Below, in pieces: positions 45,195 through 47,440 of a stretch of 64,000 bases of DNA. Where the stretch lies: positions 11,152 through 75,151 of the forward strand of contig JAZRGT010000099.1 in the NCBI GenBank assembly GCA_045644325.1, written 5' to 3'. The notes beneath the pieces are model-generated. The model was given only the letters and a program-made list of their open reading frames with translations. It was not told the origin of the DNA and made no database searches. How positions within the stretch are numbered: position 1 is the stretch's first letter; each line of letters opens with the position of its first letter. The position numbers and the translations under genes are program-made. Source of the stretch: Eubacteriales bacterium (GTDB lineage: Bacteria; Bacillota; Clostridia; Oscillospirales; CAG-272).

Positions 45195-46496
45195 ATGGAA
45201 AAGAAAACAATAGGCAAGTTCATATCCGTTTTGCGCAAGGCAAACGGTATGACACAAAAGGATCTCGCTGACAGACTTTTCGTTTCTGATAAGACCGTCA
45301 GCCGCTGGGAGCGCGACGAGTGCGACCCCGATCTTTCACTTATCCCCGCGATTGCTGAGCTATTCGGGATCACAACGGATGAACTGCTCCGAGGTGAGCG
45401 GAATTCACCCGCCTCTGCCGAATATCAAAATGAAGACGAGATCATCAAGCAAAAGAAAAAGACCGAAAAGCAATTTAAAGCTATGCTCTTCGGCAAGAAG
45501 CGTAAATTCGAGAATCTCACTCTTATTTCTGTCGGAATATCGCTACTCGGTCTGATCGTCGGAATGATAATCAACCTCGGCTTCTCGAAGGGACTCATCG
45601 CATTCTTTACCACCTCTGCATTTCTGCTCGGCGGCACGATCTGTCAGATCTGCTTTACGTCCAACGCGAAAATCGCCGTAAACGATGACGACGATTACCG
45701 CGAGCTTACCGAGGCGGCAAACACAGCGTTTTTACAAAAATCTATCGCAGTATATTTTGTAAATATCGCGATCTTCGCGTTCTGTCTGCCGCTTGTCACG
45801 CTCATAAACGGCGCAAATTTCGGTCTTAAATTCGGATCGTGGCTTTTGTACGGAATTGCATTCGCTGTCGGCGGGAGCATTCTTGCATATATGATCTACC
45901 GCTTTATTATCAAGCCTGCGCTGATTAGTCGGAATATTCTCATTTTTAATGAAATGGGACTTGCGCGCGAAAAATATACGCGAAAGCTTCTGATTCGACT
46001 TTCGTCGGTCAGCTTGGTTATCGCAATTCTTCTCGGTATTGCAATAACGGTTGTCAACAGTTTCGGTACAGCAGAATTTGCAGACAAAGTAATTCTTGAA
46101 ACTCCCGAAGAGTTCAAGGAATACATGGAATCAAGCTATGACGAAGCGAAAAATATATCGGGCGATTGGTACTATGACGAAAATGGAAACCTCATAGGCT
46201 CTGCAGTCATCGTCGACGAAGATAATCCCGATCCTTTCAAGGTTTATGACAATCTTCTTGATAAGAACGGAAACGTACTCTGCGAATACTATTACCACTC
46301 CAACCTGTATTCGCGTATCGAGTATAATATAGAGTCCGAAAATCGTTGTCCGATAACGGTCTACACACAAGAGGCGATGAGAGAAGCGGGAGTTTTGATA
46401 TCAGAAATCAAATCTATGCTTGGTATCGCTATCTTTGCAGAGGTGTCACTATTCGTAGGGATTTACATTATCAAGGTAGCAAGGAAAAAAGATTAA
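45195..46496 (+). CDS. Membrane-tethered XRE-family HTH protein (HTH, about 6 TM helices, C-terminal extracytoplasmic domain)
   Basis: KFISVLRKANGMTQKDLADRLFVSDKTVSRWERDE HTH_3 signature, multiple hydrophobic helices, GGAGG RBS. Confidence 0.8.
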   Translation: MEKKTIGKFISVLRKANGMTQKDLADRLFVSDKTVSRWERDECDPDLSLIPAIAELFGITTDELLRGERNSPASAEYQNEDEIIKQKKKTEKQFKAMLFGKKRKFENLTLISVGISLLGLIVGMIINLGFSKGLIAFFTTSAFLLGGTICQICFTSNAKIAVNDDDDYRELTEAANTAFLQKSIAVYFVNIAIFAFCLPLVTLINGANFGLKFGSWLLYGIAFAVGGSILAYMIYRFIIKPALISRNILIFNEMGLAREKYTRKLLIRLSSVSLVIAILLGIAITVVNSFGTAEFADKVILETPEEFKEYMESSYDEAKNISGDWYYDENGNLIGSAVIVDEDNPDPFKVYDNLLDKNGNVLCEYYYHSNLYSRIEYNIESENRCPITVYTQEAMREAGVLISEIKSMLGIAIFAEVSLFVGIYIIKVARKKD

Positions 46497-46502
46497 AACA
46501 AC

Positions 46503-46528
46503 AGAGCACCGCGCGGGCGCGGTGCTCT
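46503..46528. terminator. GC hairpin after the XRE-membrane gene (no U-tail on the plus strand)
   Basis: AGAGCACCGCG-CGGG-CGCGGTGCTCT. Nearly identical to the hairpin at 47122-47145. Confidence 0.55.
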
Positions 46529-46695
46529 CAGTCTACTGACATACTTTTACATAAAAGCAGCTCGATGAATTCACAAAGAAAGATAAATAGCTGTGTTCGC
46601 GCAAACAGAATATGACTTTCACGACCGTGCATAGCTATCAACTTAAGAAATTTCAGCTAAAATAATTGCGACTCTCGATAGTTAAGTACAGATCC

Positions 46696-46750
46696 CGCCA
46701 CCCCTCATCCGTCGCTACGCGCCACCTTCTCCCAAGGCCCGGGAGAAGGC
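46696..46750. repeat. Left arm of a 55-bp GC-rich inverted repeat (contains its own 9-bp hairpin)
   Basis: CGCCACCCCTCATCCGTCGCTACGCGCCACCTTCTCCCAAGGCCCGGGAGAAGGC. Internal stem CCTTCTCCC/GGGAGAAGG. Confidence 0.9.
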
Positions 46751-46907
46751 AAACTTATAATTTCGCTCAATTATTCTAAACTTCATTTAGTGGTTTAACA
46801 AAACATATAGAAAGCATTTTCAAATTCCGTTGAAAGCACTGACATTCGTCGCATTTTTACACGAATGCAGTATATCTCTATAGCTTATGTTAGCAGGTGT
46901 TATATAA

Positions 46908-46962
46908 GCCTTCTCCCGGACCTTGGGAGAAGGTGGCGCGTAGCGACGGATGAGGGGTGGCG
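46908..46962. repeat. Right arm of the 55-bp inverted repeat (54/55 complementary to the left arm)
   Basis: GCCTTCTCCCGGACCTTGGGAGAAGGTGGCGCGTAGCGACGGATGAGGGGTGGCG. Separated from the left arm by a 157-bp AT-rich spacer. Confidence 0.9.
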
Positions 46963-47121
46963 CCATTTGCACTGTATTTTATCAAGTGCATTTTTCTTTA
47001 TTTTCTTAAATTGAGAGTTTTTCCGGGTTGCAGCGTGCTGATTTTGTATGTACTAACACAGATTTCTATTTTGGCTTATAATTCTGTTTTACGATAATTT
47101 TAATACTTTAGAAGCAAAACG

Positions 47122-47145
47122 AGAGCACCGCAGGCGCGGTGCTCT
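47122..47145. terminator. Bidirectional terminator after the zinc-ribbon gene
   Basis: AGAGCACCGC-AGGC-GCGGTGCTCT, flanked by AAAAC and GTTTTT. Confidence 0.8.
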
Positions 47146-47152
47146 GTTTTTA

Positions 47153-47440
47153 TCAAAAATATTCGTGCTTACAGTTAGGACATTTCGGATAATCGTAATC
47201 GTGGACCGTGCCACATTCGGGGCAGGTCTGTTTCGGAGTCTCATCGTCGAGTGTTTCGTTTTCTGCGAGGAAAAACTCAAGTTTTCTGCACTTGGGGCAA
47301 ACGTATATCTGCACCTCGAGCGCACCCGACAAAAGATTCGGCAGGTCGCCGAGAACCCAGCCGGTCTTACCGAGCTGAATTCTCTCACGCGACAGATACT
47401 GCATATCCTCTCCGCAACGGAGACATTTCATCGTGTCCAT
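47153..47440 (-). CDS. Double zinc-ribbon small protein
   Basis: CLRCG...CPKC and CPECG...CPNC pairs. Starts 8 nt after the glnA stop. Confidence 0.6.
   Translation of the reverse strand: MDTMKCLRCGEDMQYLSRERIQLGKTGWVLGDLPNLLSGALEVQIYVCPKCRKLEFFLAENETLDDETPKQTCPECGTVHDYDYPKCPNCKHEYF

Follow-up and report, generated by a model that had tools for sequence, protein, structure and literature searches.

The GC-rich inverted repeat of 267 bp at positions 46696-46962 of the window (the whole stretch of 64,000 nucleotides analyzed here) is one copy of a palindromic repeat that is non-coding and probably mobile. We consider it likely to be the center of a non-autonomous MITE/REPIN-like element of ~330 bp. 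The element would consist of two inverted arms of 45-65 nt around an AT-rich core, and the copy in the window appears to sit in an older element that has decayed and belongs to a second family, one that duplicates hairpins. MITE- or REP-like repeats are in themselves of an ordinary kind; less ordinary are an arm that recurs across phyla without an associated transposase and the duplication of whole hairpins by the second element. Throughout, G000 denotes the genome containing the window and C labels denote its contigs, while other G numbers refer to other genomes.

Structure of the inverted repeat

A first-pass annotation had described a near-perfect pair of GC-rich arms flanking an AT-rich core, and this description held. 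Between 46696-46750 and the reverse-complemented segment 46908-46962, 54 of 55 positions agree, and the single mismatch falls in the loop of an internal hairpin. At looser identity the repeat extends to 66 nt (46685-46750 and 46908-46973, 92%) with a spacer of 157 nt between the arms. The arms have G+C contents of 0.71 and 0.69, compared with 0.30 for the core and 0.47 for the window. The 9-bp stem claimed for each arm, CCTTCTCCC/GGGAGAAGG, was recovered at 46725-46733/46741-46749 and 46909-46917/46925-46933; as a hairpin pattern it matches twice in the window and not at all in 100 shuffles. Likewise, both smaller hairpins that had been pointed out are present: CATTCGT (46843-46849) with ACGAATG (46861-46867) in the core, and TGCACT (46968-46973) with AGTGCA (46985-46990), followed by TTTTT (46991-46995), beyond the right arm. 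In addition to the small hairpin at 46843-46867, the core holds a motif, ATGTTAGCAG, adjoining the right arm, and it is ~67% identical to the core of another copy at C55:26997-27145.

The alternative folds suggested earlier, one long stem or two local hairpins, are both predicted. As single-stranded DNA, 46664-46995 forms one long hairpin of -99.2 kcal/mol (shuffle mean -34.1, z = -15.5), and none of 100 shuffles folds as well. An arm folded alone instead gives local hairpins, and single-arm RNA folds score z from -0.6 to -2.9 against shuffles. The absence of an associated ORF was also borne out. Only frames of 49 and 50 aa run across the arms, and a coding reading of the arms was rejected because these frames have neither a protein homologue nor a Pfam match. 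The earlier remark that similar palindromes are spuriously translated in Clostridia annotations found no confirmation in these frames.

The extent given to the unit did not hold. The inverted-repeat unit itself stands, but its ends reach ~46664 and ~46992, with element boundaries in this genus known only within a few bases (Table 1). Among 23 aligned units, the inverted ends run past the 267-bp coordinates, with GGATGAGGGGTGGCGGAGTCTGTACTGCAY followed by either AAACGACAAG or ATATCAAGTG, and the outward consensus of 40+ ends from four genomes (G000, G003, G006, G018) reads GGATGAGGGGTGGCGGAGTCTGTACTGCAY..ATATCAAGTG / ..ACGACAAG. Because the inverted ends reach ~46992, the stem plus T-run belongs to the right end of the element; it is not an independent terminator of a host gene. 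The GCAC..ATCAAGTGC portion of this right terminal repeat is conserved in other copies.

Table 1. Coordinates of the repeat unit, its parts and the surrounding insertion in the window.
Feature	Position	Strand	Remarks
Left arm	46685..46750	+	CCTCATCC-to-GGGAGAAGG direction
Left-arm box 1, CCTCATCC	46703-46710		
Left-arm stem 2, GTCGC-TAC-GCGCC	46711-46723		
Left-arm hairpin 1	46725-46749		
AT-rich core	46751..46907	.	30% G+C
Right arm	46908..46973	-	Same module as left arm, opposite strand
Right-arm hairpin 1	46909-46933		
Right-arm stem 2, GGCGC-GTA-GCGAC	46935-46947		
Right-arm GGATGAGG	46948-46955		
Full type-B inverted-repeat unit, MITE/REPIN-like	46664..46992	.	Approximate boundaries, from outward consensus
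Hairpin TGCACT..AGTGCA + TTTTT	46968..46995	+	Outer part of the element's right terminal repeat
Composite insertion, 593 bp, non-coding	46529..47121	.	Absent from eight orthologous sites
Left terminator copy, AGAGCACCGCGCGGGCGCGGTGCTCT	46503..46528	.	Terminator of HTH_3 membrane-protein gene 45195-46496
Right terminator copy, AGAGCACCGCAGGCGCGGTGCTCT	47122..47145	.	Terminator of minus-strand zinc-ribbon gene 47153-47440
Insert left end, CAGTCTACTGACATAC	46529..46544	+	Variant of terminal inverted repeat CAGSYTACTGACAAA
GCTGTGTTCGCGC	46590..46602	+	Copy of dispersed GCTATGTTCGCAC motif
GTACTAACACAG	47050..47061	-	Decayed inverted copy of GTGCGAACATAGC; right half of outer element

An abundant arm family in the source genome

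The source genome is a metagenome-assembled genome (MAG) of 2.95 Mb in 99 contigs, 81% complete with 4.5% estimated contamination. A count of copy number there agreed with the repeat family suspected at first: the genome contains ~90 copies of the arm. BLAST of the whole unit returned 39 matches, and two other full-length units lie at C55:26936-27203 (75% identity) and C25:518-805 (72%). The arm is laid out as CCCCTCATCCG, then a covarying hairpin, then CACCTTCYCCC-loop-GGGRGAAGG; on one strand it reads GCCTTCYCCC-loop-GGGRGAAGG, TG, a second hairpin of variable sequence and CGGATGAGG. Two types of the first hairpin are distinguished. Type A, CCTTCCCC-GGTG-GGGGAAGG, has ~81 copies, and type B, CCTTCTCCC-GGAYCTT-GGGAGAAGG continuing as GGGGTGGCGGAGTCTGTAC, has 9, the window unit among them.

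A relaxed pattern finds 88 arms, 86 of them intergenic though ORFs cover 88% of the genome. The ~90 copies are spread over more than 40 contigs within native, AT-rich intergenic DNA, which refutes the reading of the repeat as a chance palindrome, assembly artefact or MAG contaminant. The contamination estimate of the MAG could be cited in favor of that reading, but units also occur in seven other congeneric assemblies, reversed-pattern controls give 0 matches, and the shuffles never fold as well; we assign it practically no probability.

Arms sit almost only between genes, at 3' ends, and avoid promoters. The gene context of 80 arms could be classified: 19 are in convergent and 59 in tandem intervals, and only 2 lie between divergent genes, where intergenic length alone would predict 22%. 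Relative to the upstream gene, 47 arms have the same orientation and 50 the opposite, i.e., there is no bias. This placement bears on a different reading, in which selection for a cellular function maintains the arm as a structured RNA module (a small RNA, a stabilizer of 3' UTRs, or a terminator or insulator), with the copies as a by-product. A location at the 3' ends of genes and a scarcity in promoter regions are what such a module would show, but the lack of orientation bias and the usual occurrence of copies as inverted pairs are not. The hairpin plus T-run after the right arm and the weak, outward-facing promoter-like hexamers in the core could be added in its favor; promoter-like sites, however, number 3 against 2.0 +/- 1.3 in shuffles, which is no excess, and the RNA folds of single arms surpass those of shuffles only modestly. 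We also counted for it that, as read from the sequence, GGGAGAAGGUG resembles a Shine-Dalgarno sequence and CACCUUCUCCC the 16S 3' end. Furthermore, transcribed REP-type repeats are known from the 3' UTRs of Bradyrhizobium (PMC5082802). Overall, we regard an RNA module as unlikely and return to it below with the covariation and distribution data.

Other small motifs occur in the same genome. The GCTATGTTCGCAC motif has 72 copies, against 11 for its reversed control, and TAAGATAYNGTTTTTCG has 44; a hairpin, GTTCGCCTACGGCGAAC, and an inverted pair, CGAAAATCTTCC/GGAAGATTTTCG, are present as well. Small motifs of this kind travel with the arms and form a BIME-like mosaic. At one locus (C92:1850-2676), 830 bp separate two inverted type-B arms, which enclose, instead of the usual AT-rich core, an ORF of ~100 codons for a small hydrophobic protein; this arm-pair locus is also present in G003 and G018.

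Presence and absence among congeners

The same inverted-pair units were found in relatives, with presence/absence at orthologous sites, as would be looked for in a mobile repeat of the kind first suggested. Among 31 related genomes, arm matches number 15-30 in G003, G006 and G018 and 0-3 in most others (~25 congeners); a longer query gave 8-28 matches each in G034, G037, G042 and G043. Inverted pairs of 260-430 bp number 6-15 per genome in at least five mapped congeners. Across five congeners nearly every type-B end is paired in inverted orientation with a partner 260-430 bp away, and the inverted pairs mapped there have no gene-sized interior. For example, a unit on contig C375 of G006 (locus L045) corresponds to an empty orthologous site in the source genome (C94:3803-3816), and comparison of the two gives no target duplication. 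Units and arms thus vary in number and location between species of one genus.

Movement is judged here from comparisons between species, and the MAGs compared are only 71-87% complete; such assemblies often lack insertion sequences. The only contig found to encode an identical GlnA belongs to a diverged relative (~78% identity in the neighboring gene), and its site is empty.

Covariation of the second hairpin

Arms from other genomes were collected with sequence patterns and reversed-pattern controls; MAFFT misaligned the 3' half of hairpin 1. A check for structural covariation was positive for the second stem. We aligned 66 distinct arms drawn from a wide range of taxa. For the five outer pairs of stem 2, pairing holds in 77.4% of cells; shuffles give 60.4%, with 0 of 500 reaching the level of the real alignment, and sliding the partner gives 28-49%. 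Double-sided changes number 67 versus 31 in shuffles. Selection keeps stem 2 paired, and its sequence is free to change as long as pairing holds. Covariation of the stem between conserved flanking boxes is also the pattern of functional RNAs.

The loops of stem 2 may favor another form of the molecule. On the purine-rich strand, 47 of 108 distinct stems carry G-N-A triloops (GAA 28, GTA 8, GCA 7, GGA 4), the most common arrangement there. GNA triloops closed by C-G, e.g., the d(GCGAAGC) mini-hairpins, are exceptionally stable in DNA. These triloop types hint that it is the folded single DNA strand that matters.

Distribution across phyla

We scanned one genome per species with CCTCATYC-N8-22-CACCTTCYCCC and obtained at least 120 matches. 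Among the matches listed are Bradyrhizobium, Rhizobium, Mesorhizobium, Caulobacter, Xanthomonas, Legionella, Geobacteraceae, Planctomycetes, Verrucomicrobia, Thermoanaerobaculia, Flavisolibacter, Fimbriimonas and several Clostridia. The arm is also present in Acidobacteria, and the 45-55 nt two-hairpin module recurs nearly letter for letter in distant phyla. Two properties that are independent of the search pattern accompany it: the exact complementary half of hairpin 1 follows within 24 nt in 73 of the 101 matches listed, and at least 3 of 4 outer stem-2 pairs form in 96 of those 101. By exact pattern, Mesorhizobium has 90 copies, Xanthomonas phaseoli 63, Bradyrhizobium 34, Legionella 23 and Rhizobium 19, and the reversed-pattern control gave 0 matches in every genome of this census and of the class survey. 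Most Mesorhizobium copies are inverted pairs that form units of ~210 bp with the same arm orientation as in the window; in some minimal copies, one hairpin 1 serves both arms. Target duplications were absent at 10 young copies in this genus.

Within the bacterium's own class, the exact pattern occurs in only 8 of 301 sampled genomes. Such a wide but very patchy distribution is as expected for horizontal spread. It also divides the evidence on an RNA module: conservation of the sequence across phyla speaks for one, while the occurrence in 8 of 301 class genomes, the 0-3 copies in most congeners and the lack of an Rfam family speak against it. The Rfam scan, one of the checks proposed at the outset, found no family at the gathering threshold. 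For the window region it returned only long-hairpin look-alikes among plant miRNA precursors (73 bits versus a threshold of 230), and at 12 loci from other phyla it returned nothing at the motif.

Viruses and plasmids were surveyed as possible carriers. More than 120 IMG/VR contigs carry the exact pattern, and the only genes that recur near it are structural genes that we take to be GTA- or prophage-like, a label judged from one portal-like sequence; we attribute this recurrence to the sampling of the viral collection. The window's own unit has no match in phages and only two short arm matches in plasmids. An arm-like sequence (87.5% over 48 nt) lies at 170448-170491 of a Xanthomonas sacchari plasmid (NZ_CP010410.1), inside the annotated mfd gene. 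REPs located inside genes are often in replication and repair genes (PMC3733652).

Relation to known repeat families

The element was first described as MITE-like or REP/BIME-like. Its copies, its variation among relatives and its covarying stem support that description; a GTAG or CGTC tag, a linked Y1 gene and a target duplication, the more specific marks of such families, were not found. Like MITEs, the ~330-bp unit is short and non-coding with terminal inverted repeats, and it has many dispersed copies with presence/absence at orthologous sites. Fixed-length target-site duplications are absent at L045 and at the 10 Mesorhizobium copies, and in these incomplete assemblies no transposase-bearing parent insertion sequence with matching ends was found. 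Like REPs and REPINs, it forms inverted doublets in intergenic 3' regions, but it is not a 20-40-nt palindrome with an unpaired GTAG or CGTC tag, and no single-copy RAYT flanked by REPs was found with it.

A closer likeness to the REPINs and REP/BIMEs of Proteobacteria lies in short, GC-rich palindromes whose inverted doublets fold into one long hairpin, in tens to hundreds of copies at intergenic 3' ends without target duplication, and in mosaics with other small motifs. Unlike these, the arm family has neither the tag nor a linked RAYT, its arm consists of two stacked hairpins with conserved boxes of 10-11 nt, and the AT-rich core in this genus measures 160-330 bp, whereas the REPIN spacer is a few tens of bases. 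The arm sequence is, moreover, common to several phyla, whereas REPs normally belong to one lineage. Correia elements of Neisseria and RUP of Streptococcus pneumoniae are similar in being non-coding, 150-450 bp long and multi-copy, with terminal inverted repeats, presence/absence polymorphism and nesting in other repeats. They differ from the window unit in that no target-site duplication or parent insertion sequence was found for the latter, and the inverted repeats of its family are very long (55-95 nt) and internally structured.

Published REP families were compared with the arm as well. GTAG and CGTC REPs are single stems with defined tags, in 28 families (PMC3733652), and this type was rejected for the arm, which has the boxes CCCCTCATCCG and CACCTTCYCCC instead. 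The CGTC REPs of Alphaproteobacteria (Di Nocera et al. 2013, PMC3733652) occur in the same hosts, mostly as head-to-head dimers, and "apparently lack a dedicated transposase"; their one stem of 8-9 bp starting with A-T, loop of 4-5 nt and CCA tail are all missing from the arm. Similarly, Br-REP1/2 were set aside on their different consensus sequences (PMC5082802). A literature search by sequence word returned only primer noise.

Search for a mobilizing gene

The unit could alternatively be a classical REP/BIME moved by a RAYT, or a PATE-type deletion derivative of IS200/IS605. Short palindromic modules, inverted doublets, intergenic 3'-end positions and the missing target duplication are all compatible with this, and Y1 genes do exist in congener G003 and, as nine IS200-like copies, in Mesorhizobium. 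However, searches of G000 and G006 turned up no Y1/RAYT gene, and the motif does not flank the Y1 genes present in G003, Mesorhizobium and Bradyrhizobium. Of ten Y1 loci checked, none has box-2 or hairpin-1 words within 1.5 kb and 2 hold a lone CCTCATCC octamer; the motif is missing from the Y1 loci of G003, G050 and G053. The link to RAYT or IS200 was therefore rejected, since the Y1 genes are either missing or without a nearby motif; together with the untagged arm and a stem and loop format unlike the 28 described families (PMC3733652), this makes the reading improbable.

IS110 and ISNCY_2 were likewise rejected as mobilizers, as their genes do not track the arm-rich genomes. Across 160 loci in genomes and viral contigs, no neighboring gene recurs apart from the viral structural genes mentioned above. 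At two Clostridia loci, the genes between direct arm copies are ordinary housekeeping genes.

The non-autonomous mobile element remains our preferred reading; among the observations against it are that no mobilizing gene was found and that near-identical arms across phyla are unusual for a REP or MITE. Families of these kinds are normally lineage-specific and tied to a RAYT or a parent insertion sequence. The cross-phylum conservation of the arm could instead point to a conserved cellular function. For the mobile element, the lack of target duplication, the long structured ends and the stem-2 loop types together point to a single-strand route, HUH-like or otherwise non-DDE. The element would move, or would have moved, as a folded single DNA strand. 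An enzyme supplied in trans may recognize the hairpins and flanking boxes, the boxes acting as putative recognition or cleavage signals, and insertion would proceed without target duplication.

More tentatively, the arm may define a very widespread, undescribed family of palindromic mobile DNA that is moved by an enzyme other than RAYT, where undescribed refers to comparison with the published descriptions of GTAG and CGTC REPs and Br-REP1/2. Such a family would span Clostridia, Alpha-, Gamma- and Deltaproteobacteria, Planctomycetes, Acidobacteria, Verrucomicrobia and Bacteroidota. The candidate enzyme would be either a dedicated protein that has yet to be recognized or a conserved enzyme of the host that works on single-stranded hairpins. 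If this is true, a non-RAYT enzyme would explain why the same sequence is found everywhere without a travelling transposase.

An outer, hairpin-duplicating element

The unit in the window lies within a larger insertion (Table 1). Orthologous sites are empty in seven genomes (G006, G042, G018, G003, G010, G005, G001) and on a metagenome contig (L345), where the sequences matching query positions 1-629 and 1223-1801 abut or overlap. Each empty site holds a single terminator hairpin between the two convergent genes, and in the window this hairpin is duplicated directly, one copy on each side of the insert. The right copy is identical to the single hairpin of G001, the closest relative. The loop of the left copy is 2 nt longer, which indicates that the copies have been diverging since insertion.

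The ends of the insert belong to a family of 480-530 bp with the termini CAGSYTACTGACAAA...TTTGTCAGTRRSCTG; the right half was assigned through a match of GTACTAACACAG to C77:105428-105458. Complete copies in the source genome lie at C1:12741-13246, C48:4573-5106, C54:18996-19487 and C19:8611-9094, and around each of the four a local hairpin, different at every locus, is present in direct duplicate. All copies observed have the complete terminator hairpin of their locus, 20-33 bp long, duplicated. We interpret the insert in the window as a decayed copy of this hairpin-targeting element, which either carries a type-B unit of its own or was invaded by one afterwards.

Two further loci in the source genome show other contexts. 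At C48:20800-21260, a fragment of ~95 bp from the left end of the outer element lies inside an arm and has duplicated that arm's own hairpin 1, with CCTTCCCCGCTGGGGAAGG on both sides; since an arm hairpin is duplicated here, the outer element seems to target hairpins generally and not terminators only. The contig ends C31:68000-68363 and C40:1-340 are apparently the two parts of a single outer element. The hairpin GGATCAG..CTGATCC flanks them and has additional solo 16-nt terminal repeats on both sides of it, as if one hairpin had received nested or repeated insertions.

No transposase was found for the outer element, and ISNCY/IS1202-type genes were below cut-off in 38 of 38 congeners. IS1397/ISKpn1 are known to target REPs, and duplications in the IS1202 group measure 24-29 bp. 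The outer 593-bp element resembles these in its insertion beside a terminator stem with 24-33 bp duplicated, but it differs in that the duplicated segment is an entire hairpin in each copy observed. Such duplications suggest the base of an extruded hairpin as the insertion point.

Implications

In bacteria, small palindromic repeats shape the DNA between genes as well as terminators and the ends of mRNAs, and spurious gene calls result from them. For the repeat described here, effects on the host such as protection of mRNA 3' ends, termination or insulation between convergent genes are possible and would be secondary. The arm pattern offers annotators a simple mask. In addition, the second element, with its duplicated hairpins, hints at insertion into extruded hairpins. 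Finally, the same 45-nt core in gut Clostridia and in soil- and plant-associated Proteobacteria implies either an unrecognized mobilizing activity or a universal cellular interaction.
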